Shown: positions 4,423 through 17,071, numbered from the stretch's first letter. The stretch: DNA of 64,000 bases from Treponemataceae bacterium (GCA_963667725.2 CAXXHO010000003.1:1472001-1536000); one strand, 5' to 3'. The notes: generated from the sequence alone by a model not told the origin. Translations and numbers: made by a program.

Positions 4423-5481
4423 TCAGTTCAAGGCTTCGAACAGCTTCTGGGCGAAAACAGCCGATGTTTCCCTGGGGCAGAGGTAGGCCACGGCGCTGGG
4501 ATCATCGCAGTCCAGTTCGATCACGTCTAGTCCTATGGTCCGCACTGATTCACGAGCCAGGACGACGCCTTTCGCGCCGGCAGCCGCGGAAAAGACCGCC
4601 GTCACGCGAAGCTTGTTACCTGGCCCGGAGCAAGTAGCGAGCCCGAGGAAATTAGGAACCTCGGCACCCTGGGATGCCGGTCCGATGAGGGTGCCTTCGC
4701 CCTCGTCGAAGGTGGAACGCACGCGCATTCTCAGGCCGCTGGCCTTGGCCAGCAGGGCGGACTTGTCGTGCAGCACTCTCGCGCCATGATTCGCCAGCCT
4801 GAACATGGAGTCGTAGTCGAGAAAATGCATGAAGGGGACGCCCTTAACGAGCCGAGGATCCGCCTTGGCCACGCCGGGGACATCCTTGTAGATATCGACG
4901 AAATCGGCCCCGAGCGCCGCCCCTATCGCGACGGCGCTTGTGTCGCTCCCGCCGCGGCCGAGGGTGAGTATGTCGCCCACGGCGTCGACGCCCTGGAAGC
5001 CCGTCACGACAGGAACCTTCCCGGCCGCCAGAACAGCTCTGAGGCGCGCCGGATCGATCGCGGCAGGCGCCGCGTCCCCGAAGGGGCCACTGGCCGCGAT
5101 GCCGGCAGAGTGCGCCGTCATGGGAACGGCCCCGATGCCCATGGAATTGAGGAGGGCCGCTATCACGCAGGCCGAGATCACTTCTCCGCAGGAGACCAGT
5201 AGGTCGCTGGTGAGCCCATCCATGCCGCCAGCCGCATCGGCGGCGACGACCGGGCCGGCCGAGCCTACGCCGCCCGCTGTGCCTGCACCGCCGGAATATT
5301 CTCCCAGCAGATCAAGGAGCGTATCGGTGGCGTAGGGATCTCCCCTCCGCCCCATCGCGGAAACGACGAGGACGATTTCGTCCCCGGCGTCCCGCGCCGC
5401 GCCGACTTTTTTCGCGAGCATTTCTCTCGCGGCGGGATCAGCCAGCGACGTTCCGCCGAATTTCTGAACAATCAAAGCCAT
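4423..5481 (-). CDS. lysC: Aspartate kinase (DapG/aspartokinase I-like), short degenerate C-terminus
   Basis: IVQKFGGTS, VVSAMGRRGDPYATDTLL, GFQG, TLGRGGSDTSA, DVPGVAKADPR. Confidence 0.9.
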   Translation of the reverse strand: MALIVQKFGGTSLADPAAREMLAKKVGAARDAGDEIVLVVSAMGRRGDPYATDTLLDLLGEYSGGAGTAGGVGSAGPVVAADAAGGMDGLTSDLLVSCGEVISACVIAALLNSMGIGAVPMTAHSAGIAASGPFGDAAPAAIDPARLRAVLAAGKVPVVTGFQGVDAVGDILTLGRGGSDTSAVAIGAALGADFVDIYKDVPGVAKADPRLVKGVPFMHFLDYDSMFRLANHGARVLHDKSALLAKASGLRMRVRSTFDEGEGTLIGPASQGAEVPNFLGLATCSGPGNKLRVTAVFSAAAGAKGVVLARESVRTIGLDVIELDCDDPSAVAYLCPRETSAVFAQKLFEALN

Positions 5482-6504
5482 CTATAATTTCCTTGGTTCG
5501 AGTCCCCGCGCCGCGAGGGTTTCGGCGATCTGGACGGCGTTGAGGGCGGCGCCCTTCCTGAGGTTGTCCGACACCACCCAGAGATTCAGTCCGTTGGGCA
5601 CCGTCGGGTCCCTGCGGATCCTGCCGATAAAGACCTCATCCCGGCCTTCGCAGTCCAGGGCCGTAGGATACACCAGGTTCGCCGGATCGTCCATCACGAG
5701 CACCCCGGGCGCCTTCTTCAAAAGCGCCACCACCTCGGCCAGCTCGAAAGGCTTCTCCGTCTCGATGTTGATCGACTCCGAATGCCCTCTCGTCACCCCG
5801 ATCCGCACCGCCGTCGGACTCACCAGAATGTTCGGGTCCAGCATCTTGTGCGTCTCGTGCACCATCTTCATCTCTTCTTTCGTGTAGCCGTTGTCCAGGA
5901 ACACGTCGATGTGCGGCAGGGCGTTGAAGAGTATCTGTCTCGGATAGACCGCCACCGTGAGGGGCTTGCCCTCGGTGAATTCCTTCGCTTGGTTCCGCAG
6001 CTCGGCTATGGCCGCCGCTCCCGTGCCCGAAACCGCCTGATAGGTCGCGACGACGATCCGCTTGATCTTGTAGGCATCGTGGATGGGCTTGGCCGCCACG
6101 AGCATCTGGATGGTCGAGCAGTTGGGGTTGGCGATGATGCCTTTGTGCCAGGCAAGGTCCTGGGGATTGACTTCGGGGATGACGAGGGGGACCTTGGGGT
6201 CCATGCGCCACTGGCTGGAGTTGTCGATGACGATGGCGCCTTCAGAGGCCGCCGCCGGAGCGAGGATTTCGCTGGCTTCGGCGCCCGCAGAGAAGAGGGC
6301 GATGTCGACATCGCCGAAGGCGCCCGGCTTGGCCGCCCTCACCGTCTTTTCCACGCCCTTGAAGGTCACTTTCTTTCCGGCCATGGCCTCGACGTCCATG
6401 GGGATGATCTCCGAGACCGGAAAGTCCCTCTGCTCGAGGGTTTTCAGCATTTCCGTGCCCACGGCGCCCAGGGCGCCCACCACCGCGACTCTATAGGATT
6501 TCAT
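5482..6504 (-). CDS. asd: Aspartate-semialdehyde dehydrogenase
   Basis: GALGAVG, DNSSQWRM, IIANPNCSTIQ, YQAVSGTG, DNLRKGAALNAVQIAE. Confidence 0.97.
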   Translation of the reverse strand: MKSYRVAVVGALGAVGTEMLKTLEQRDFPVSEIIPMDVEAMAGKKVTFKGVEKTVRAAKPGAFGDVDIALFSAGAEASEILAPAAASEGAIVIDNSSQWRMDPKVPLVIPEVNPQDLAWHKGIIANPNCSTIQMLVAAKPIHDAYKIKRIVVATYQAVSGTGAAAIAELRNQAKEFTEGKPLTVAVYPRQILFNALPHIDVFLDNGYTKEEMKMVHETHKMLDPNILVSPTAVRIGVTRGHSESINIETEKPFELAEVVALLKKAPGVLVMDDPANLVYPTALDCEGRDEVFIGRIRRDPTVPNGLNLWVVSDNLRKGAALNAVQIAETLAARGLEPRKL

Positions 6505-7003
6505 GATTCCTCCGAATGCTTATGACATTTTCCACGAATTCTTTCGGGAACTCCGCCGTCACGACGGCCGTCCTGTTGTTCCGCGCGGGATTGATCGCCG
6601 CGATCACCACGCCGGGACAGACAACCTGCCCCTGACGGTCCACCATTTCCACTTTCTGTCCCTTCACCGGAAGCGGCAGGTATTCCCAGGGGAAGCGAAT
6701 CCTCGCCATGTCGCCATCGACGCTTTTGATCGTTATGGCGAGTCCGGGACAGGCAGGGATGCAGAGCCCGCAGAGGATGCATTTTCCCCTGTCGATGACG
6801 GGCAGGTTCGTTATGGGGGAGCCCACCGTAAGCGCGTTCTGCGGGCAGCTTGTCTCGCAGGGGTTGCAGGGAATTTCCTCGACGCATTCGATGCAGAGAC
6901 AGGCTTTCTCCTCCAGGTCCGCGAGGGTGGTCAGCATGCCGGCGGCGCGCAGCTCTTCAAGAGAAGGCGCTCCCGTCGTTTTCAGCGATTGATTGTCACT
7001 CAT
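6491..7003 (-). CDS. 4Fe-4S dicluster subunit of a proline/opine-dehydrogenase-type complex
   Basis: ECVEEIPCNPCETSCP and CILCGLCIPACPGLAI motifs. Confidence 0.88.
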   Translation of the reverse strand: MSDNQSLKTTGAPSLEELRAAGMLTTLADLEEKACLCIECVEEIPCNPCETSCPQNALTVGSPITNLPVIDRGKCILCGLCIPACPGLAITIKSVDGDMARIRFPWEYLPLPVKGQKVEMVDRQGQVVCPGVVIAAINPARNNRTAVVTAEFPKEFVENVISIRRNHEIL

Positions 7004-8100
7004 TGGGCCGCTCCCTTCTCAAGAATCCTCTGTTTCGCGGCAAAGCGTTTCTGCCCGAATACGCCCTGCCTGAGGGAACTCAGACGTTGTACGGTTTCTT
7101 CCGTCCTGGCCTTCATCGTGGCTTCGTCCAGATATCCCATGGCATATGCCGCGTGGATGCCCGCGAGCCTTCCTTCTTCCATGGCCGTGCTAGCTTCCTC
7201 AACGCCCGCTATGTCGCCTACCACGTAGATAGATTCATCGCTGGAGCGCATGTACCGATCGTGGCCCGGCATATTGCCGCCGAGCTCCGGAATGTATATT
7301 TCCTTGCATCCCGCTATGCATGCCAGTTCTATGGAAGGCGTGAGGCCGACGGCGAGGCAGATGGTGTCCACTTCGAGGGTCTCTTCCGTTCCCGGTATGG
7401 GCTGGAAACGCGAGTCGATCTTCGCGATGATCGCGCGCTCAACGCTTTCCTTGCCCTCGGCGCGAAGGATTGTCGTGGCGCAGCGGAAGGGCACGCCGGC
7501 GCGGGCCACTTTGGCCGTGTGGACGCCGTAACCGCCTAACTTGGGAAGGGCTTCCACCACCGCCACCACCTCGGCTCCTGCCTGCATAAGCTGATAGGCC
7601 ACGATGACGCCGACGTTGCCCGATCCTATCATGAGCACCCGTTTTCCGGGCAGGACGCGATGCACGTTAATGAGGGTCTGGGCGCAGCCGGCCGTCATGA
7701 CGCCAGGCAAGGTCCAGCCGGGAAAGCTGAGGGCGTTCTCGGTCGCCCCCGTGGCGAGGATGAGTTTCGAGGCTTCTATCGTGTATGAGCGATTTCGGTT
7801 TTCCACCGCCCACACTTTCAGTCCGCTTTCTATGCCCACGACTTCCGTCTTGAGCCGCACATCGATGCCCAGGTTGAGCGATTCGGTCAGGAGTTCCTTC
7901 CCGATCTCGAAACCCCTGGTGCCGGCCTTGTGCTCGCGGGAACCGAAAAACTTGTGTATCTGCTTGAAGAGCTGTCCGCCCGGCTTGGAGTTTTCATCCA
8001 TCAATATCACCGGAGCGCCGGCTTTTTTCAGTTCTATCGCCGCGCAGAGCCCGGCCGGCCCGGCGCCGACCACTATGGCGGGTTTCCTGTCAGTTTCCAT
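7000..8100 (-). CDS. FAD/NAD(P)-dependent oxidoreductase, alpha-type subunit (PdhA/OoxA/HcnB-like)
   Basis: VVGAGPAG, GGQLFKQ, ATGA..FPGWTLPGV, GSGNVG, VVGDIAG; start trimmed to ATG 8100 behind GGAGG. Confidence 0.9.
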   Translation of the reverse strand: METDRKPAIVVGAGPAGLCAAIELKKAGAPVILMDENSKPGGQLFKQIHKFFGSREHKAGTRGFEIGKELLTESLNLGIDVRLKTEVVGIESGLKVWAVENRNRSYTIEASKLILATGATENALSFPGWTLPGVMTAGCAQTLINVHRVLPGKRVLMIGSGNVGVIVAYQLMQAGAEVVAVVEALPKLGGYGVHTAKVARAGVPFRCATTILRAEGKESVERAIIAKIDSRFQPIPGTEETLEVDTICLAVGLTPSIELACIAGCKEIYIPELGGNMPGHDRYMRSSDESIYVVGDIAGVEEASTAMEEGRLAGIHAAYAMGYLDEATMKARTEETVQRLSSLRQGVFGQKRFAAKQRILEKGAAQ

Positions 8101-8449
8101 CGCCGGCCTCCGCTTCGATTTTCCAGCTTCCCACGCCTTTCTGCCGCTCAACAGTCATGCCGTCGCGCACATCGGTCACGCAGGTGCGGACGCCCGGAAC
8201 GCCGTCCACCATCATGACGCAGTCGGTGCAGCGCCCGATGCCGCAGAACATCCTGCGGGGAGATCCTTTCTTCGTATAGCGGAACACCTTGACGCCGGCG
8301 GCGATAAGCGCCGACATGATCGGCTCGCCGGCTCTCGCCTTCAGCGCCTTCCCCTCGAAGAAGATGGTGACTTCTTCCGTCGCCTCGAGGTCGCCGAGAA
8401 TGGCGTGATGGCCTATTCTCGAGCCTTCCTGAATGCTGCCGTCCTTCAT
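8090..8449 (-). CDS. (2Fe-2S)-binding subunit (HcnA/sarcosine oxidase alpha N-terminal-like)
   Basis: FCGIGRCTDC...VDG.PGVRTC. Confidence 0.9.
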   Translation of the reverse strand: MKDGSIQEGSRIGHHAILGDLEATEEVTIFFEGKALKARAGEPIMSALIAAGVKVFRYTKKGSPRRMFCGIGRCTDCVMMVDGVPGVRTCVTDVRDGMTVERQKGVGSWKIEAEAGDGN

Positions 8450-9324
8450 TTTAGGAGCCCCAGATCGGCGAGCGCCGCATGAAGGGCCGCGGTTACTTCC
8501 GTCGAGGCGTCCTTGAGGGGAGCCCGCAGGGAACCCGCGTTGAAGCCGCAGAGCCTGAGCGCCATTTTCACCGGCACGGGGTTCGGCTGGAGGAAAAGGG
8601 CCTTGTTGATGGCCTGCAGTTTCACGTGCAGGGCCGCCGCTTTGGCGTTGTCGCCGGCCAGGTAGGCTTCAATCATCTTTTTCATGATCCCGCCGGCCAC
8701 ATGTCCGGTCACCGACACGACTCCATAGCCGCCAATAGCGAGCGTGGGCAGGGTGAGCGAATCCTCGCCCGTATAGACCCTGAAGCCCGGCACCGCGTTC
8801 TTGATGACGATGGTCGTGTCGTCGAGCACGCCGGCGGCGTCCTTGAGCATCGTGATGTTCGGCACGTCGCGCGAAAGCTTCACGATGGTCTCAGGCCTGA
8901 TGCTTATGCCCGTTCTTCCCGGGACATTGTAGAGCATCGAGGGAATCTTCACCGACGAGGCTATGGCGGCGAAATGATCGTAGAGCATTCCCTGATCGGG
9001 CTTGTTGTAGTAAGGAGCGACGAGAAGAAGGCCATCGGCCCCGGCCTCCTCGGCGTCGAGAGCGTTCTGGATCGAGGCCGCCGTGCTGTTCGTGCCGGCG
9101 TTTCCGATGAGCGGCACGGAGACAGCCTTCCTCACCGCCTTTATGAGGTCTATCTTTTCCTGGCGCGTCAAGGTCGGCGATTCGCCTGTCGTTCCGCTCA
9201 GGACGAGGGCGTCGACGCCGTCGGCGATGAGCCGTTTTGCCAGTTCGACCGCTTTTCCGGGATCCAGTTCCAAGTCCTCGCGAAAAGGTGTTGCCATAGC
9301 GACAATGAGTCTTCCGAAATCCAT
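8446..9324 (-). CDS. dapA: 4-hydroxy-tetrahydrodipicolinate synthase
   Basis: GTTGESPTL, PYYNKP, LYNVPGRTG (ASA-binding Arg retained), Schiff-base Lys in LKDA, PNPVPVK. Confidence 0.92.
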   Translation of the reverse strand: MDFGRLIVAMATPFREDLELDPGKAVELAKRLIADGVDALVLSGTTGESPTLTRQEKIDLIKAVRKAVSVPLIGNAGTNSTAASIQNALDAEEAGADGLLLVAPYYNKPDQGMLYDHFAAIASSVKIPSMLYNVPGRTGISIRPETIVKLSRDVPNITMLKDAAGVLDDTTIVIKNAVPGFRVYTGEDSLTLPTLAIGGYGVVSVTGHVAGGIMKKMIEAYLAGDNAKAAALHVKLQAINKALFLQPNPVPVKMALRLCGFNAGSLRAPLKDASTEVTAALHAALADLGLLK

Positions 9325-9368
9325 CGTATTTCCTCCGTTATTGTTCCGCGGTCGACACGACCGCGCTT

Positions 9369-9650
9369 TCAGTCATCCATCGATTTGATTGAAACCGGAC
9401 GCACTGGCTGCCTGAAAGAAGCGATCTCCACTTCCTCCGGTTTCAGATGCAGTTCTTCCGCCAGAATTCTCTCCACGAGACGCCGGCAGGACCTGCCCTG
9501 ACATATACCCATGCCGGCTCGCGTCCAGCGCTTTACTTCGATGACACTCTTAGCTCCCGCGCGGATCGCGTCCCGGATTTCCTGCTCGGTGACTTCTTCG
9601 CATCGGCAGATATACTTTTCGTTTCCTTTAGCATTCTCTTCGGCCATCAC
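9369..9650 (-). CDS. BFD-like (2Fe-2S) subunit
   Basis: ICRCEEVT...KRWTRAGMGICQGRSC...RQPVRPV. Confidence 0.9.
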   Translation of the reverse strand: MMAEENAKGNEKYICRCEEVTEQEIRDAIRAGAKSVIEVKRWTRAGMGICQGRSCRRLVERILAEELHLKPEEVEIASFRQPVRPVSIKSMDD

Positions 9651-9651
9651 C

Positions 9652-10377
9652 TTACTCCCTGTAATGTTCCCAATATTTCTTCACATCCTCGATGAGGGAA
9701 TCCATATGTCCGCTGATACACGTTTCCGCCTTGTCCGGATCATGAGCCGTCAGGGCCTCGAGGATCGATCGATGGGCTGTCCTGTAGTTTCCTCCGACCC
9801 GGCTCCGCATGAACTCAAAGAGTTCAGACTGCTGCCCCATCATGGCAAGGATGCCGTAAAGCGCAACCAGAGCCGAATTGGTGGAAGCTTCGGCAATGCC
9901 GCGGTGGAAGGCAATATCGACTTCCGCGATGCTTTCGCCTCTCGCCGCTTTGGCTTCCTGTTCTTCCAGAATCTGCTTGAGGTGTTCCAGCTTCGCTTCC
10001 GTGATGTTCTCGGCGGCCAGGCGCACTGTCTCTCTCTCTATAGCCTTTCTTGCCTGCAGCACCATGATATATTCATCGAGAATCCGGCTATCTATTAGAT
10101 TCTCCAGCTCTTTCCTATGCATATCGAACGATTTATAGCTTTTCGCCCTCTCTATGGCCTTCAGCCCCTGTTTCGTCAGCACGCGGCCTTTGTTCGTCCT
10201 GCTTTCCACATAGCCGAGTGACTCAAGCCTGTATAGAATTCGCCCGATAGATGCTGAACTGACCTTGCAATTCCTTTTTTCGCACTCCTCCACGAGACTC
10301 CAGGATCCGAGAGGCTCACCCGCGTCGCGGATGAATTCGAGCACCATCAGATCTCGCTCGTCGAGATTGGTTTTCAC
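9652..10377 (-). CDS. Transcriptional regulator: winged-HTH plus FCD (FadR C-terminal) domain
   Basis: N-terminal EPLGSW..SIGRILYRLESLGYV..GRVLTKQG; C-terminal ARKAIE, DIAFH, HRSILEAL..HD. GTG 10377 chosen by AAGGA RBS. Confidence 0.85.
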   Translation of the reverse strand: MKTNLDERDLMVLEFIRDAGEPLGSWSLVEECEKRNCKVSSASIGRILYRLESLGYVESRTNKGRVLTKQGLKAIERAKSYKSFDMHRKELENLIDSRILDEYIMVLQARKAIERETVRLAAENITEAKLEHLKQILEEQEAKAARGESIAEVDIAFHRGIAEASTNSALVALYGILAMMGQQSELFEFMRSRVGGNYRTAHRSILEALTAHDPDKAETCISGHMDSLIEDVKKYWEHYRE

Positions 10378-10390
10378 GCGATAATTCCTT

Positions 10391-11575
10391 TCAGACGCTT
10401 TGGAAGCGCCCAGGAGCAAATTTTTCGAGAGAAAATTCCGGCGTCACTCCGCAGACGAGATCGGCCATCACCCTGCCAGTTATTGGCGATAGGGCAATGC
10501 CGTCGCCTTCGTGACCGGCGGCTATGAAGAAGCCCGGCGCGCCGGGGATCTCCCCGAGGAAGGGCATTCCATCCGGTGTCGAAGGCCGCAGGCCGGCGAA
10601 GGTCCTTATAAAGTTTATCTTTTCCATCACGGGGAAGAACCGCTTGGCTTGGGCGGCCAGCAAAGCGAGAGCGTCGGGATTGGTAGTCTTGTCGAAGCCA
10701 ACGTTCTCCCTTGTGGAGCCGATGAGATAGTTGCCGCTGTGCGTCCCCGTGAAAGCAAATCCCAGGCCAAACTTATCGCCGGGCTTGGCCGAGGCGTCTT
10801 TGGGAACCGCCTGCGGTCTCAACTTCGAGACAATATACTGAGCGCTCCAGACGTTGGTTTCCCCGAGCGGAGGAATGGATTCTGTGACAATGACCTGACC
10901 TTTCCGCGGTGTTATGGGCACCTCAAAGCCTATGAGTCTGGTGACTTCGTTTGCCCAGGCACCCGTCGCGTTGACGACACTTTCCGCCTCAACCACATCT
11001 CCCGTTGAGAGGCTGAGCACCCAATAACCATCGCGCTTAGCGATTTCAGTTGGCCTTGCCCGGTCCATAAATCTAAGGCCATGCTTTTTTGCGCCGAGAA
11101 GGAATCCCTTCATGAGGAGCATAGGGTTAACCTGGGAGTCGCGCTCGCTATACGTGGAAGCGATGATGTCCCTGGCAACCAGCGGCTGCAGCTCGCGAAG
11201 ACGTTTGGCGTCGATTATCTCGACCTTGAGGCCATAACTGTTCTGGCTGGCGACAAAGTCCTCCATTACCTTGAGATGCTCCTCATCCTCTATCAGGATG
11301 GTTCCGCCGTGGGTATCAAATTCAATATCGCAGGGAAGCTCCTGCTTCAGGCCTTCAAAAAGCTCCAGGCTCCTGAATGCCATTTCGAGAAGAATGCCAG
11401 GTTTCTTGGACTGGAGAAGGATCATGTCATCGCAGGAACCGGAAGCGCCGGCGCCCGGAACTACCTTGTCTATAAGAATCACGTTCTTACCGCGCTTGCA
11501 TAGTTCATAGGCTATGGATGTTCCATTGACGCCGGCGCCAAGCACCGCCACATCGCATTTCGTTGTCGCCATCAT
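10391..11575 (-). CDS. FAD-dependent D-amino acid/imino acid oxidase-family beta subunit (PdhB/OoxB/HcnC-like)
   Basis: VLGAGVNG, GASG, VNATGAWA, PRKGQ, FAGLRPSTPDGMP, GHEGDGIALSP. Confidence 0.92.
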   Translation of the reverse strand: MMATTKCDVAVLGAGVNGTSIAYELCKRGKNVILIDKVVPGAGASGSCDDMILLQSKKPGILLEMAFRSLELFEGLKQELPCDIEFDTHGGTILIEDEEHLKVMEDFVASQNSYGLKVEIIDAKRLRELQPLVARDIIASTYSERDSQVNPMLLMKGFLLGAKKHGLRFMDRARPTEIAKRDGYWVLSLSTGDVVEAESVVNATGAWANEVTRLIGFEVPITPRKGQVIVTESIPPLGETNVWSAQYIVSKLRPQAVPKDASAKPGDKFGLGFAFTGTHSGNYLIGSTRENVGFDKTTNPDALALLAAQAKRFFPVMEKINFIRTFAGLRPSTPDGMPFLGEIPGAPGFFIAAGHEGDGIALSPITGRVMADLVCGVTPEFSLEKFAPGRFQSV

Positions 11576-12304
11576 TTAGCCTCTGTCCTGAATCAAGCCG
11601 GAATGGATATATCCCGCAAGCGTCACGATGTCGAACACCGGCCTGCCGCAGGATTCCTGAATCGCCTTTCTGAAAGGGGGCATATTCGTACACTCCAAAA
11701 CTATGAAATTTATGTCGGGATGTCGATCCACGAGTCTGCGGGCGACACTTCTTAGCTCGGTTTCCGCCTTGCCTCTATCGAGACATGGTACTGAATCGAT
11801 GTCTCCCTTCTCTAGAAATACTCTCGTGAATTCTGGACTATCGTCCATTCCCGCTACCGCCAAGGGAAGCCCAGATGCTCCGCATTGGTCAAAATGCCGG
11901 CTGCCGAGCGAAGAAGCCCGCGCGGTCATTACTCCAATTTTTCCCTTTCCTCCGAAAAGCGAGAACAGAAAGGGAATCTGCAGGAGACTGGAAGTGAAAA
12001 CCGGAATACTGACCGCCGCCGCGAGCTCTTTCTGGAAGAGGACGAGAAAGCCGCAGCTTGTCGTTATGGCTTCCACGCCTTCCGCCTCAAGCTCCCGCGC
12101 CGCGGCGATGAAGGGATCGAGGAGAGCGGGGTCACCCTCCTCTACCACACGCTTCGGCGAAGCTCCCTCGACCTTGAGGTAGCGTACGGGAAAAGGAAAG
12201 GTACGGGCATTCCCTATGTCCCCGGGAATTCGGGGAAACCTCGTGTCCAGCATCAAGATGCCGAGAGATTGACCATAGGTTGTATACCCTCCCTTCGCGA
12301 TCAT
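11576..12304 (-). CDS. Asp/Glu/hydantoin racemase-superfamily protein
   Basis: Two catalytic-type Cys: TTSCGF and LECTNMPP. Confidence 0.85.
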   Translation of the reverse strand: MIAKGGYTTYGQSLGILMLDTRFPRIPGDIGNARTFPFPVRYLKVEGASPKRVVEEGDPALLDPFIAAARELEAEGVEAITTSCGFLVLFQKELAAAVSIPVFTSSLLQIPFLFSLFGGKGKIGVMTARASSLGSRHFDQCGASGLPLAVAGMDDSPEFTRVFLEKGDIDSVPCLDRGKAETELRSVARRLVDRHPDINFIVLECTNMPPFRKAIQESCGRPVFDIVTLAGYIHSGLIQDRG

Positions 12305-14214
12305 GCAAATGCCTCCATGTGGGCTTTGACCGCTTTCTTGTTGAGGATGAAGAAGGCGATCAGTATCACGGCGGAAGCAACGATTATGATGATCTGAGGA
12401 ACAAGCTGCGTCATGATGGAAACATTACAGACGAGGACGACGAGCGCGGCGGTAAAGACGCCCAGGAGCATCTGCAGCACTCTGCCGATATTTTTAAAGA
12501 GATAGCCCGTGAAGGTCGCGGACCAGAGCATGGAGATGATCAGACCCAGAAGGAAGGTCGCGAGGATATCCAGCGGAGTACCTTTCAGGATCAGGGCGTT
12601 ATTGTAGACGAATATGAAGGGAATAAGATAACCCATGATAGCCAGCATGGATGCCTCAACCCCAGTGGCCAGAGGTTTAGTGCCCGCAATAGCCGCTCCG
12701 CAATAGGACGCGATGCATACAGGAGGCGTTACCTCAGCCATTATGGCGAAATAGAATACGAAGAGATGGGCAGGCAGGACATCGATGCCGAGAGCCATCA
12801 TGGCCGGTCCACCGATCGTCACCGCGATAATGTACGCGGGTGTGCAGGGCAAACCCATGCCGAGCAGAAGGCATGTAAGCATGACGAGAATCAGCGCAGG
12901 AAGGAGGAAACCGCCCGAGAGGCTCTGGATGGCCGTGGCGATGCCGAGAGCCAAGCCTGTGTAGGTAACAACGCTGACAACTATGCCTGCGCCTGCGCAG
13001 GTAACGCCCAACATTATGCAGTTATAGCCGGAATTCTCAAAAATCTGAAAAAGCTTTTTCGGCGTAAGTCTCGTATCCTTGCGGAAAAAGCTGAGAACGA
13101 AGGACGAAGCGATCGAGTAGATGCAGGCTCCGAAAGGTGAATAGCCTATGACAAGGAAGGCGATAAGGACCACGAGGGGGAGGAGGAGATAAGAATCCAT
13201 GATGATCTGCTTCCAGGAGAGCATGTCCTTGGGATCCATCGCCTTGAGGTGTTCTTTGAGCGCTACGAAGTGCACTCGCCAGTAGATGCTCACATAGTAA
13301 AGGATCGCGCCCAAGGCTGCCGCCAGGGCTATCGTCGCATATGGGATATTCGTGATCTCAGACATCACGAAGGCTCCAGCGCCCATTATCGGCGGCATGA
13401 TGAGCCCTCCCGTCGATGCCGCGGCCTCAACGGCGCCGGCGAACTGGGGTCTGTATCCGAGCTTTTTCATGAGAGGTATGGTGAAGGTCCCCGTGGCGTA
13501 GACATTGGCCGACGCGACGCCCGATATGGAGCCGAAAAGGCCGGAACTGATGACGGCGATCTTGGCCGGACCGCCCGGCCCCCGCCCCGCGATCTTGGTG
13601 GCAAAATTGGTGAAAAACGCGCCGGTCTTCGTCGTTTCCATGAAACAGCCAAAAATGACGAAAATGGCAACAAAGGTCGCCGTAACGCCGGTGATCGCTC
13701 CGTAGATGCCCGTATCGGTCAGCAGATAATTCATCTCGACAATGCGGGCAAAACGTGTGGGCCTCGCATAAAAAATGCCTGGCAAATATGGGGCTACGAA
13801 AACGTAAAGAATAAAGACCCCGACCAGCACCGCCATGGCTGGCACGACGACACGCCGAATCGCCTCGAGGATGAGCAATATGTTTATGGTCCCCAGAACT
13901 ACTTGAAGTGTAGACACCGAGGAGACCATCTGCATTCGCATATTGAGCGGCTCATTGTAGATGATGATATAGAGGGCCGGCACGAAGGAGAGGAGGGCGA
14001 GCAGAACGTCCAAAATGGTCGGCCTGTCGACTGGAGACTTCGTTTTGGATGCCGGAAATAGGATGAAAGCCATTGGAAGCAGAAACAACAAATGAACGCC
14101 TCGCTGGACGCGGGGCTGCATGACGCCAAAAACCGCCGTGTAAAGATAGAACAGGGCGATTATGGCAGACCATATACCAACCAAGGTCTTGAGCGGACCT
14201 GTGAGTTTTCGCAT
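12301..14214 (-). CDS. TRAP transporter fused permease (TAXI-associated 4TM/12TM)
   Basis: GGPAKIAVISSGLFGSISG, EAAASTGGLIMPPIMGAGAF, AEVTPPVC. Confidence 0.95.
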   Translation of the reverse strand: MRKLTGPLKTLVGIWSAIIALFYLYTAVFGVMQPRVQRGVHLLFLLPMAFILFPASKTKSPVDRPTILDVLLALLSFVPALYIIIYNEPLNMRMQMVSSVSTLQVVLGTINILLILEAIRRVVVPAMAVLVGVFILYVFVAPYLPGIFYARPTRFARIVEMNYLLTDTGIYGAITGVTATFVAIFVIFGCFMETTKTGAFFTNFATKIAGRGPGGPAKIAVISSGLFGSISGVASANVYATGTFTIPLMKKLGYRPQFAGAVEAAASTGGLIMPPIMGAGAFVMSEITNIPYATIALAAALGAILYYVSIYWRVHFVALKEHLKAMDPKDMLSWKQIIMDSYLLLPLVVLIAFLVIGYSPFGACIYSIASSFVLSFFRKDTRLTPKKLFQIFENSGYNCIMLGVTCAGAGIVVSVVTYTGLALGIATAIQSLSGGFLLPALILVMLTCLLLGMGLPCTPAYIIAVTIGGPAMMALGIDVLPAHLFVFYFAIMAEVTPPVCIASYCGAAIAGTKPLATGVEASMLAIMGYLIPFIFVYNNALILKGTPLDILATFLLGLIISMLWSATFTGYLFKNIGRVLQMLLGVFTAALVVLVCNVSIMTQLVPQIIIIVASAVILIAFFILNKKAVKAHMEAFA

Positions 14215-14254
14215 AAATTCCCCTTTTGGAAAAAAACGGATCAGTCAGGGAACC

Positions 14255-14288
14255 GGAGCGGCGCTTCAGGTCTCTGAAACGCCGCTCC
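14255..14288 (-). promoter_or_regulatory. Intercistronic stem-loop after the TAXI gene
   Basis: Transcript GGAGCGGCGUUUCAG-agac-CUGAAGCGCCGCUCC with a U-G pair only on the minus strand. Confidence 0.6.
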
Positions 14289-14317
14289 AATCCAAGAAAA
14301 GCAGAATATAGAACGGA

Positions 14318-15340
14318 TTATTTCATCAAGCCCGCTTCGCGATAATACTTAAGGGCGCCTGGGTGCAGGGGGACCTGAACGGTGGTGCCGGCATTCTTGG
14401 GCTCGAAAACCTTATATCCTGCGCCCATCTGGAGCAGGAAGTCTTTGTTCTCGTTGAGAACTTTCGTGAGGACATAGACGACATCATCAGAAAGTTTCGG
14501 GCTGACAAGCATTTCTGTCGAATGACAGAGTGTCTGGATGTCGCTGGGCATACCTGTGTACGTGCCGCCGGGAACCCTGGCTAGTCCAGAATTGAGGGCG
14601 ACTGTTCCATAGGTGGTGGCGCAGAAATTGATGAGCTCATCGGAGAGCGCCATGAGGGTGGCGGGTCTGCCCATCGCCATTTCGGTGATGATTGCCGCGG
14701 GGAGTCCGACGCAGGTGAAGGCGTAATCGACGTGGCGGTCCTTGAAGAGGCTCGTCATGTCGCCATAGATGGCCTGGATCACCTTACCGCCGTTCTGTTT
14801 GATCTTGTCATAGGAAATGCCATAATGCTGGAGCACAAAGGAGGTCATGACATATTCGGAAGTACCGGTCATGGGTGCCGCGACGTTCAGTTTGTCGCCC
14901 TTCTTAACCTTGGCGACAAACTGGTCGAGGGTAGTGACGCCCTGATCCTTGGCGGCCAGGAAGTGATAGTAATCGACGGCGAGAGTGCCAGCAAAAGCCG
15001 AGATCCTCTTATATGACTTGTCATAGATCGGCGCCGTACCGTTAAAGGCTGCCTTGTCCACATAACCGACGCCCCAGGCTATATCGGCGTCTCCCTGATC
15101 GAGAGCGATGGGGTTGGCCACTCCGCCGCCCGGGACGACCTTGATAGTGATGCGAGGCTCTTTTTCATTGACAAGGCGCGCGAAACCGCCTGCCACCGTG
15201 TACCAGCCGCCGCCCATGCCGCCCGCTACCCATGTATAGGTTCCCGCTTTCATGTTCGCCGGACCTACCTGCGCGTAAGCCATACCCGCTGCGACAAAGC
15301 AAAGAACCAACAGCGCCAAGGGCTTCCCTAACTTTTTCAT
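14318..15340 (-). CDS. TAXI-family TRAP solute-binding protein
   Basis: Signal peptide, GGMGGGWY, GGGVAN, PLHPGALKYYRE. Confidence 0.95.
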   Translation of the reverse strand: MKKLGKPLALLVLCFVAAGMAYAQVGPANMKAGTYTWVAGGMGGGWYTVAGGFARLVNEKEPRITIKVVPGGGVANPIALDQGDADIAWGVGYVDKAAFNGTAPIYDKSYKRISAFAGTLAVDYYHFLAAKDQGVTTLDQFVAKVKKGDKLNVAAPMTGTSEYVMTSFVLQHYGISYDKIKQNGGKVIQAIYGDMTSLFKDRHVDYAFTCVGLPAAIITEMAMGRPATLMALSDELINFCATTYGTVALNSGLARVPGGTYTGMPSDIQTLCHSTEMLVSPKLSDDVVYVLTKVLNENKDFLLQMGAGYKVFEPKNAGTTVQVPLHPGALKYYREAGLMK

Positions 15341-15369
15341 GTGTGCCTCCTATGGAAATTTCTCTACCA

Positions 15370-15416
15370 CTCATCAGTAGATGAGCAATCGTACGACAAG
15401 TATTTGAACCTGTCAA
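15370..15416 (-). promoter_or_regulatory. Sigma-70 promoter plus palindromic operator for the 12-gene operon
   Basis: TTGACA(15416-11)-17 nt-TACGAT(15393-88); CTCATC-agta-GATGAG at 15370-15385 over the predicted start site. Confidence 0.7.
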
Positions 15417-15478
15417 GAAAAATTTATAGTATATTTATGCTGATTTACAGAGGGAAAACAAATTTTTATGAATAATTT

Positions 15479-17071
15479 TTACAAAATCGGGCGCTCAAAA
15501 ACCAATTTGCCGGCGACTGCCGTCGCTGAAACCTTTGTTATCCGAAGCGAGTTCTCATCATCCTCGATCAAATCGCCATCGAGAACGGTGAAGTCGGCCC
15601 ACTTTCCGGGCTCGAGGCTCCCCCTGCCGCCTTCCTCGAAATTGGCGCGCGCGGCCCAGATCGTCATGGCGCGCAGGGCATCGGCCCGGGACATGGCTTG
15701 CGAAGGCCTGTAGCCTCCTTCAGGCAGCCATGCGTCGTCCTTCCTGAAAACCGCCGAGCGGAAACCGCGCAGCGGTTCTAGTCTCTCTATGGGAAAGTCG
15801 CTGCCGTTGGCCAGCCAGCCGTTCTGCGCGAGGAGGTCGCGGTAGCGGTGCGAGCGGGACATGCGTTCATGTCCAAGACGCGTTTCGGTCCAGGCCATGT
15901 CGGAGGTGGCGTGGCTGGTCTGTACCGAGGGGATGATGTTGAGGCGGCCGAAACGCGGAAGGTCGTCGTCGTGGACAAGCTGGGCGTGCTCGACGCGCCA
16001 GCGCAGATCGTTGCCAGGTTCGAGAAATCTTTCGTAGGTATTGAGAACGAGGCGGGCGGCCGCGTCGCCGATGGCGTGGACATTCATCTGGAATCCGCTG
16101 GCCTTGGCGATTCCGCAGACACGCGCGAGCTCGTCGGGGTCCAGGGTAAAAAGGCCGCGGTTTCCAGGATCGTCGGCGTAGGGCTCCAGGAGACGCGCGC
16201 CCCGCGAGCCCAGGGCTCCGTCGGCGAACATCTTGAAAGACCTGACCGTGAGCCTATCGCCGGCACTAGGACCGCGCGACGCGAAATATTCGATATTCTC
16301 CAGGGTAGGCAGCAGCATGACATAGATGCGGATGGGGAGATCCCCCTCCCCCTGCATTTTTTCCATGAAGAGCGCGTCGTTTTTTTCGGTTCCGGCGTTG
16401 GAAACCGAGGTAAGCCCGGCGGCGAAGCACTTCTCCTGGGCGACGAGGAGGGCTTGCCTCGTGGTCGCTTCGCCAGGCGAGGGAATTACGCTTTTCACCC
16501 TGTCGACGGCGTTGTCCAGGAGAAGCCCTGTGGGACGGCCGCCCGAAACGACGATTGTCCCGCCGTCAATGCGGGACGCCGCGTCTATGCCCGCGGCGGA
16601 GAGGGCGGCGGAATTGGCCATGGCGGCGTGTCCGTCGACGCGGATCGCCAGGACAGGGACGCGGGGAAAGGCTCTATCGAGAAGCTCATTGCTGGGGAAT
16701 TGTCCCGATTCCCATGTGTTCTGGTCCCAGCCGCGGCCCTGGACCCAGGGCTCAGGGCTATTGGTGGCATGCGCGACAAGTCTCGCCACCGTTTCCTCCC
16801 AGGACCTAGCGCCGAAAAGCTGGGCGCGCTGAAGGACGTAGCCATAGCTCAGGAAGTGGCAGTGCGGATCCATGAAGCCAGGGTAGACGACGGCATTTCC
16901 GAAATCGAGCCGCCGTCGCGGCGAGAATGCCTCTTCCATATCGTCGCGCCTTCCGACGGCAATAACGCGGCCGAGGTCGACGGCCACGCACTCGGCGACG
17001 GAGAAGGCTTTATCCACGGTATAGATGCGGCGAGCGTTGACGATGAGATCGACTCGGGTCTTCATGCCCAT
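15479..17071 (-). CDS. Amidohydrolase 3 family (YtcJ-like)
   Basis: PGFMDPHCH, KMFADGALGS, HAIGD, RVEHAQ, GSDFP. Confidence 0.92.
   Translation of the reverse strand: MGMKTRVDLIVNARRIYTVDKAFSVAECVAVDLGRVIAVGRRDDMEEAFSPRRRLDFGNAVVYPGFMDPHCHFLSYGYVLQRAQLFGARSWEETVARLVAHATNSPEPWVQGRGWDQNTWESGQFPSNELLDRAFPRVPVLAIRVDGHAAMANSAALSAAGIDAASRIDGGTIVVSGGRPTGLLLDNAVDRVKSVIPSPGEATTRQALLVAQEKCFAAGLTSVSNAGTEKNDALFMEKMQGEGDLPIRIYVMLLPTLENIEYFASRGPSAGDRLTVRSFKMFADGALGSRGARLLEPYADDPGNRGLFTLDPDELARVCGIAKASGFQMNVHAIGDAAARLVLNTYERFLEPGNDLRWRVEHAQLVHDDDLPRFGRLNIIPSVQTSHATSDMAWTETRLGHERMSRSHRYRDLLAQNGWLANGSDFPIERLEPLRGFRSAVFRKDDAWLPEGGYRPSQAMSRADALRAMTIWAARANFEEGGRGSLEPGKWADFTVLDGDLIEDDENSLRITKVSATAVAGKLVFERPIL

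Follow-up and report, generated by a model that had tools for sequence, protein, structure and literature searches.

The spoVF operon, with the gene order dpaA-dpaB-asd-dapG-dapA (excerpts of bioRxiv 803486), and the aerobic dip cluster of Alcaligenes faecalis JQ135, in which DipD carries out an O2-dependent 3-hydroxylation of dipicolinate (pyridine-2,6-dicarboxylate) and the GntR/FadR-type repressor DipR, released by dipicolinate, uses the operator GWATAC (excerpts of PMC11472048), are two of the described systems closest to the locus reported here. The others are the flavin/Fe-S complexes OdhABC, D-hydroxyproline dehydrogenase, the archaeal dye-linked L-proline dehydrogenase and HCN synthase, which share a DAO-fold beta subunit, an FAD-binding alpha subunit, a [2Fe-2S] part and a four-cysteine part (excerpts of PMC4575208). 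Our locus is a twelve-gene operon at positions 4,423 to 15,340 of a 64,000-nucleotide stretch of DNA from a Treponemataceae bacterium, an anaerobic spirochaete (GCA_963667725.2 CAXXHO010000003.1:1472001-1536000), hereafter the window. It encodes a TAXI-TRAP importer, a racemase-like protein, a repressor, a five-subunit flavin/Fe-S complex and three lysine-pathway enzymes, namely DapA, aspartate-semialdehyde dehydrogenase (Asd) and a DapG-type aspartokinase (Table 1). The cluster is real, conserved and undescribed: all its parts come from known families and their combination is new. We propose, with a probability of roughly 0.45, that it is an inducible operon for the uptake of dipicolinate and its breakdown to pyruvate and aspartate. 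That it serves catabolism at the dihydrodipicolinate node we consider likely, the substrate being probably dipicolinate or a close relative and the first three lysine-pathway steps being run backwards.

The likeness to the proline, opine and D-hydroxyproline dehydrogenases, which the original prediction pointed out, extends to the GxGxxG motifs in subunits alpha and beta, and to the [2Fe-2S] motif Cys-X4-Cys-X2-Cys-X11-12-Cys, and breaks down at the Arg-X-Trp FMN motif: the beta subunit, 26% identical to 1y56_B, has Arg-Thr-Phe (R324-T-F326) where 1y56_B has RTW. The motif Cys-X-Cys-Xn-Cys-X4-Cys is carried by the separate BFD protein, with n = 32 vs 15-20 (motifs as given in the excerpts of PMC4575208). 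Unlike the heteromeric amine dehydrogenases, the window complex has an extra ferredoxin-like subunit and is linked to true DapA, Asd and kinase genes; the exchange of beta subunits on shared alpha and gamma parts, mentioned in the same excerpts, has a parallel in the class of genome G645 (see below). The host genome (G000) holds three further, distant flavin/Fe-S amine dehydrogenase clusters on contig C3 (908864-912165, 314813-317106 and 2218989-2221519), with beta subunits at 24-25% identity.

Bacterial hydroxyproline catabolism employs an epimerase, a DapA-family deaminase and an aldehyde dehydrogenase. D-Hyp dehydrogenase provides one of its steps (excerpts of PMC4575208), and the window likewise unites a racemase, a flavin complex, a DapA-fold enzyme and aldehyde oxidation in one cluster, but its racemase belongs to PF01177 rather than to the proline racemase family and its DapA is a true one rather than of the deaminase type. 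The predicted resemblance to the spoVF core is borne out, the window asd, dapG and dapA being of the same lineage in trees that contain, like all the DapA, Asd and kinase trees below, only sequences fetched in this analysis; the kinase lacks an ACT domain, as does the kinase beside dpaAB in genome G193. The cluster is unlike spoVF in having an importer, a repressor and the flavin/Fe-S complex in place of dpaA and dpaB (dpaB was not found in the host genome either), and in occurring in non-sporulating spirochaetes as well as alongside intact dpaAB. With the dip cluster it would share, if it acts on dipicolinate, the substrate and the type of repressor; it differs in its operator and has no oxygenase family (compare the excerpts of PMC11472048). 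The known dipicolinate-degradation genes are aerobic, and the string 'anaerob' is absent from those excerpts. Our searches of one collection of open-access papers yielded no system matching this gene combination and no genes for anaerobic dipicolinate breakdown.

A conserved unit with its own operator

Open reading frame (ORF) calling and family profile searches recovered all twelve predicted minus-strand ORFs, with the families and the order first described, and the ATGA overlaps (12301-4, 8446-9 and 7000-3) and abutting junctions (11575/6 and 5481/2) are exact in the sequence. Two starts were corrected from homologues: the regulator most likely begins at GTG 10377 (241 aa, from homologue lengths) and the alpha subunit most likely at ATG 8100 (366 aa).

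Searches with the beta subunit detected a close counterpart in 11 of 60 relatives, in 14 of the 34 genomes of G645's class and, at E 1e-90, in 22 of the 251 from the order to which G061 belongs; 20 of these 22 have the core type. This type forms a clade of 58 rows in a beta-subunit tree of 126. A general absence of dapA from homologous clusters, which the original prediction named as evidence against itself, is not what the core clade displays: dapA is present in 50 of its 58 loci, seven others are cut off before the dapA slot and one (L126) is without it. Identity is at least 43% for 48 of these genes and 39-41% in L129 and L138, the latter ambiguous. Among the other 68 beta rows, many of them on short contigs, five have a close dapA and six a distant DapA-family gene. 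A second beta clade is found in units made of a sigma-54 activator, beta, dapA and a symporter of the same family as that of the core clusters, in genomes that also hold a unit of the remaining subunits with a different beta and a racemase. As a clean negative control the outer clades partly failed, since one of them pairs with dapA and this symporter.

What stays constant is the set of five subunits, together with dapA, the FCD gene and an importer. The foreseen co-location of all twelve families holds to the extent that the gene set with its internal dapA is kept as a unit in both Spirochaetota and Bacillota, but the racemase (absent from most Bacillota core clusters), asd and the kinase are variable, and the importer slot is filled by either of two unrelated importers: spirochaetes have TAXI-TRAP there, and Bacillota a sodium symporter.

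The predicted operator, with its core CTCATC-N4-GATGAG at 15370-15385 directly behind a promoter-like site, is presumed to be bound by the FCD repressor; a matrix derived from related loci scores it highest in the whole genome. Allowing one mismatch or none, it stands ahead of the cluster in 20 of the 26 loci from L027 to L052, the remaining six being on contigs that begin inside the cluster, and also ahead of 18 of the 20 core loci from Bacillota (L054-L072 and L074), L063 having a two-mismatch site and L060 none. It was found before none of 14 outer-clade loci, and not in L125, L126, L129, L138 and L218. In a scan of 35 genomes a strict form of the pattern, which misses spirochaetes (0 of 12), occurred as a single site in 18 of the 19 matching genomes, the reversed-pattern control giving 0 in 35; as to further regulon genes, the scan produced one extra site (G177, L103) with uninformative neighbours. 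In Bacillota clusters the operator lies before asd and the kinase gene, and neighbouring ddh and aminotransferase genes sit upstream of it. Of the single promoter and operator originally proposed, the operator is upheld by its conservation across related clusters of two phyla, but the promoter match is not significant on its own, the scan giving 5 promoter-like sites vs 5.4 expected from shuffles. A second near-perfect operator match (G000:C3:1379744-1379763), some 230 bp upstream of an ABC transporter operon of the branched-chain-amino-acid type, may be due to chance or mark a regulon member. In two same-genus loci (L035:5227-11949 and L049:5280-11928) there are two FCD genes and two operators, one set with TAXI-TRAP-racemase-FCD and the next with beta-FCD and the genes that follow.

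The lysine-pathway trio and an enzyme swap

The prediction that dapB, dapD, dapF and lysA are lacking is correct for the window and wrong for the genome, which has a separate asd-lysC-dapB-dapA-dapD operon (C3:132006-137247), dapF, lysA and also a bifunctional kinase; dapL (TIGR03542, TIGR03540), ddh and aspA gave nothing above cut-off in it. Against the housekeeping copies, identity is 35% for the window DapA, 27% for its Asd and 32-34% for its kinase, and the trio is redundant in this genome. That the trio might feed a normal dapB pathway, a possibility raised with the original prediction, agrees with some genomes, in which the cluster dapA is the sole one and dapB is present, but not with this one and its separate lysine operon.

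Window DapA exceeds the TIGR00674 equivalog cut-off (Table 1) and is by this profile a member of the HTPA (hydroxytetrahydrodipicolinate) synthase family. It retains T44, T45, Y107, Y133, R138, K161, D188 and N248, which we take to be the catalytic and substrate residues of the E. coli enzyme, whereas D187 is Glu in this and many other cluster copies. At H56 and E84, presumably the lysine-allosteric sites, it has Lys and Ala and so is not of the lysine-inhibited type. Cluster DapAs and dpaAB-adjacent DapAs share a 56-row clade (support 100/99) apart from the housekeeping copies, and the kinase and Asd trees (FastTree) show the same grouping. Because it groups with dpaAB-adjacent copies, the trio is, as judged from these trees, of the Bacillota spore-dipicolinate type and foreign to the spirochaete. 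In five dpaAB loci (L199-L201, L207 and L208) asd-dapG and dapA are oriented towards dpaAB or away from it, unlike the Bacillus order, and dapG is ACT-less and 327 aa long.

Aldehyde:ferredoxin oxidoreductase (AOR) genes occur in five core clusters (L067, L072, L074, L216 and L218), none of which has asd or the kinase gene. In L067 and L072 the AOR gene occupies the asd-kinase slot of the sister loci L066 and L068-L071, facing outward and preceded, at 16 bp, by an operator of its own; the arrangement in L074 and L216 is the same, and in L218 AOR directly follows the ferredoxin gene, where the window has asd. In four of the five, an operator stands 16-98 bp ahead of AOR, and the two AOR types used are only 30% identical. 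Conversely, an adjacent AOR was found in 0 of 38 distinct loci bearing asd or the kinase gene, L059 having an AOR-like piece five genes off. Because AOR replaces asd and the kinase gene, a catabolic direction is favoured, in which both routes would turn aspartate semialdehyde into aspartate.

A second copy of asd in the host genome (C3:217127-218146), 98.5% identical to that of the window, is again found in an uptake setting: it belongs to a unit (G000:C3:217127-225256, or L011:8127-16256) with GntR, TRAP, TAXI, a divergent thiamine pyrophosphate (TPP) enzyme and a class I aminotransferase. This unit may feed another compound, e.g. an acid of the 4-oxo-glutamate type, into aspartate semialdehyde. 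Additional asd copies of the window type are present in several related spirochaetes.

Possible dipicolinate breakdown and its alternatives

The original suggestion of import followed by DapA, Asd and kinase acting in reverse gains support from the conservation, the operator, the redundancy of the trio and the AOR swap; its substrate, its direction and each of the chemical steps we infer. Dipicolinate fits because it lies one two-electron step, at N-C2, from the product of DapA and is plentiful in anoxic habitats. It would be imported by TAXI-TRAP, and its binding, or that of a product, would free the FCD repressor from the operator. Two electrons from NAD(P)H or ferredoxin would then travel through the five-subunit enzyme to the FAD of beta and be delivered as a hydride to C2, a D-amino-acid-oxidase step reversed. 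The 1,2-dihydro product would tautomerise and hydrate to dihydrodipicolinate/HTPA, the racemase, where present, correcting the configuration at C2, and DapA would split the ring into pyruvate and aspartate semialdehyde. Finally, Asd and the ACT-less kinase would convert the aldehyde to aspartate with a yield of NADPH and ATP, AOR taking their place in other genomes. The sum, dipicolinate + 3 H2O = pyruvate + aspartate, was computed to balance in its elements; it would be redox-neutral, the electrons of the last step paying for the ring reduction. Dihydrodipicolinate would be a branch point, hence DapA could feed DapB too. Seyfried and Schink reportedly found acetate, propionate, ammonia and CO2 as anaerobic products of dipicolinate, which would fit pyruvate and aspartate. 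Anaerobic dipicolinate degradation, by fermentation, is cited (Seyfried and Schink 1990) in excerpts of both PMC8048543 and bioRxiv 803486.

The beta subunit is consistent with such a substrate. Its predicted model (pLDDT 90.8) is nearest to glycine oxidase 4ysh (TM 0.87) and L-proline dehydrogenase 1y56_B (TM 0.86), at 26-28% identity. In the alignments, from which the residue roles are read, its R330 (in GLRP) and Y247 match the Arg and Tyr by which glycine oxidase holds an alpha-carboxylate, a clamp absent from 1y56_B. Q55 and K57 are invariant, Ala replaces the glycine-oxidase H244 and an invariant Lys stands beside A54; changes at the H244 and A54 positions allow glycine oxidase to accept glyphosate, with its second acid group (excerpts of PMC3818420). 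The pocket would suit a nitrogen flanked by two acids.

Several observations weigh against dipicolinate breakdown, some of them favouring an alternative with which they are given below. The beta residues just cited are also invariant in outer clades without dapA. Pyridine-ring reduction and DapA reversal are both uphill and may need ferredoxin, and no report of a reversible DapA was found among the open-access papers searched. No aspartase was found in the host genome. Some core clusters have neither asd and kinase nor AOR (L045, L048, L058 and L126). The AOR cases amount to about three events, one of them clean, and kin are not independent; AOR could act as an electron donor only.

The alternative that survives best, though we consider it unlikely, keeps the catabolic route and has the imported compound reduced and chiral: piperidine-2,6-dicarboxylate or its 4-hydroxy or 4,5-dehydro form, whose configuration would be set by the racemase and whose C-N bond would be oxidised by the flavin enzyme before DapA, Asd and kinase finish the work, a scheme like that of hydroxyproline catabolism. 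Oxidation is indeed the direction in which the characterised relatives of the complex operate (excerpts of PMC4575208), and the two-cysteine racemase suggests a chiral substrate, dipicolinate being achiral; it mostly accompanies beta clades without dapA. Moreover, beta1-racemase and beta2-dapA-symporter units co-occur in the class of G645 (at one locus in L222 and L076), as a route with two oxidations would need. However, in most core clusters of Bacillota a single beta occurs without a racemase; no abundant natural source turned up among the open-access papers searched, and piperidine-2,6-dicarboxylate would need two oxidations and a tautomerisation to reach the product of DapA.

It is quite unlikely that the operon is instead a regulon for lysine and diaminopimelate supply, in which kinase, Asd and DapA work forward while importer and flavin enzyme salvage external dipicolinate, turning it into dihydrodipicolinate for DapB to use. 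In 11 of 33 genomes, many of them incomplete, the sole TIGR00674 match (E 1e-55) is the cluster dapA (the second match in G645 and G711 is a 30-31% homologue), and in five of six spirochaete lysine loci (G012, G021, G035, G031 and G059) dapB adjoins dapD with no dapA, G017 being the one that keeps it. Where the cluster dapA is the sole one or the housekeeping dapA is lost, cluster DapA probably runs forward for lysine synthesis; it would then have to be expressed without inducer, or the module would supply dihydrodipicolinate. Cluster DapA thus probably also works forward, and Bacillota clusters often adjoin dapA-dapB-dapH, ddh or lysC. Against a supply function, the cluster is retained in three related genomes with no detected dapB (G193, G205 and G165), the trio is redundant in the present genome, dapB and ddh stand outside the operator-led unit, and the mutual exclusion of AOR and asd-kinase is left unexplained.

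It is very unlikely that the operon works in the forward, synthetic direction and releases dipicolinate or a piperidine dicarboxylate, as chelator or solute, for later recovery by the importer. The feedback-free kinase and the DapA are akin to dpaAB-adjacent copies and the forward reaction of DapA is downhill, but neither the twelve genes nor the related clusters include an exporter, AOR would need to reduce aspartate, and many clusters lack asd or the kinase. It is highly improbable that dehydrogenase and importer act on an unrelated amine or opine, with dapA, asd and the kinase as captured housekeeping genes. Although outer beta clades occur without dapA and in company with TPP enzymes or alanine dehydrogenase, and the window operon is a recombination mosaic (see below), dapA lies inside the subunit genes in two phyla (46-100% identity) and is paired with a second beta clade, asd and the kinase are behind the cluster operator, and the copies are not of the host type (24-35% identity). 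Finally, replacement of DapB by the complex, which the original prediction gave as an alternative, or of DpaAB as spore dipicolinate synthase, is barely credible and largely refuted: of 33 genomes with a core beta, 5 yielded no dapB, and of 21 Bacillota cluster genomes 8 yielded no dpaB, but dapB is present in the other 28, canonical dpaB lies elsewhere in 13 of the 21, and dpaB was found in 0 of 8 spirochaetes, organisms that do not sporulate.

Gene layout, related units and meaning

Table 1. Predicted features of the operon, in the order of transcription (window positions).
Feature	Position	Strand	Remarks
Sigma-70-like promoter TTGACA-17-TACGAT	15388..15416	-	10/12 matches; 48 bp before TAXI start, adjoining operator
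Operator (predicted), palindrome (A/G)CTCATC-N4-GATGAG(T/C)	15368..15387	.	overlaps likely transcription start
TAXI substrate-binding protein	14318..15340	-	340 aa; TIGR02122 166 bits (cut-off 84)
Fused TRAP permease, DctQM type	12301..14214	-	637 aa; TIGR02123 567 bits (cut-off 321)
Asp/Glu-racemase-superfamily protein, accessory	11576..12304	-	PF01177; PRK07475 298 bits (cut-off 231); cysteines C84, C205
Catalytic FAD beta subunit, DAO fold	10391..11575	-	PF01266; predicted structure
Winged-helix + FCD repressor (predicted)	9652..10377	-	about 241 aa; PF07729 + HTH_12
BFD-like four-cysteine subunit	9369..9650	-	PF04324; C15, C17, C50, C55
DapA (HTPA synthase), lysine-insensitive type	8446..9324	-	TIGR00674 282 bits (cut-off 206)
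[2Fe-2S] subunit	8090..8449	-	Fer2_4 PF13510; C69, C74, C77, C90
FAD/NAD(P)-binding alpha subunit	7000..8100	-	about 366 aa; Pyr_redox_2
Ferredoxin-like subunit	6491..7003	-	Fer4; [4Fe-4S] motifs, one canonical and one variant
Aspartate-semialdehyde dehydrogenase (Asd), Bacillota type	5482..6504	-	TIGR01296 440 bits (cut-off 324)
DapG-type aspartokinase	4423..5481	-	352 aa; PF00696, no ACT domain; core motifs intact

The importer is identified by scores above the cut-offs of both TIGR02122 and TIGR02123. The nearest solved structures of the TAXI protein are at E 3e-26, the structure search gave no close solved relative of the racemase (best E 0.0013), whose Atlas entry holds the family name only, and the solved TAXI, racemase and FCD structures are all too distant for a ligand to be read from them. 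A GC-rich inverted repeat lies between the TAXI and TRAP genes at 14255-14288, a position typical after binding-protein genes. Near 9330 the GC content steps from 53-56% to 59-65%, and DNA identity to genome G002 is 92-96% in dapA vs 72-87% in the BFD and FCD genes, which places a mosaic junction at 9300-9350. A homologous block seems to have taken the place of the operon's 5' half; TAXI-TRAP circulates in two subtypes, at about 65% and about 85% identity. Misassembly was ruled out as a cause of the GC step, one DNA contig of a public run covering 8915-15824.

Sister units with the order Fer2-alpha-Fer4-BFD-beta-racemase and no dapA occur in L217, L219, L220, L222, L223, L228, L230-L232, L075-L080 and L082-L086, some of them near a DctM-like transporter, alanine dehydrogenase and zinc alcohol dehydrogenase; they are candidates for another uncharacterised imino-acid pathway or for a linked step. 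In L073, L158, L161, L163 and L171 an outer-clade beta is accompanied by a TPP enzyme, mostly by a racemase and sometimes by AOR, which suggests a pathway that oxidises and decarboxylates another imino diacid and oxidises the resulting aldehyde. Beside an outer-clade beta in L087, a single ORF (9251-10981) joins the N-terminal part of a DapA to the C-terminal part of a TRAP permease, probably as a result of deletion or of an assembly artefact.

Dipicolinate accounts for 5-15% of the dry weight of spores, and what becomes of it once released is mostly unknown according to the excerpts of PMC11472048, where the use of their own dipicolinate by spore formers is given as unreported. We tentatively suggest that the cluster might be the missing anaerobic dipicolinate pathway, with a ring reduction by an O2-free flavin/Fe-S enzyme, the first three lysine-pathway enzymes reversed and an ATP-forming aspartokinase: a pathway rebuilt from the synthesis genes of spore formers and spread to non-sporulating anaerobes, through which spore formers might consume their own dipicolinate. 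A direct test could draw on the named genes of the cluster, on its operator and on cultured hosts, candidates being the anaerobes Geosporobacter ferrireducens, Anaerosolibacter carboniphilus, Marinisporobacter balticus, Anaerovirgula multivorans, Natranaerovirga pectinivora and Crassaminicella thermophila, which have beta proteins of the core clade. If a rival explanation is true, it will still be an uncharacterised regulon at the dihydrodipicolinate branch point. If dipicolinate is the substrate, the cluster would provide an O2-free pyridine reductase, a DapA that is reversed under physiological conditions and an aspartokinase that forms ATP, and it would bear on the sediment spore counts that are derived from dipicolinate.

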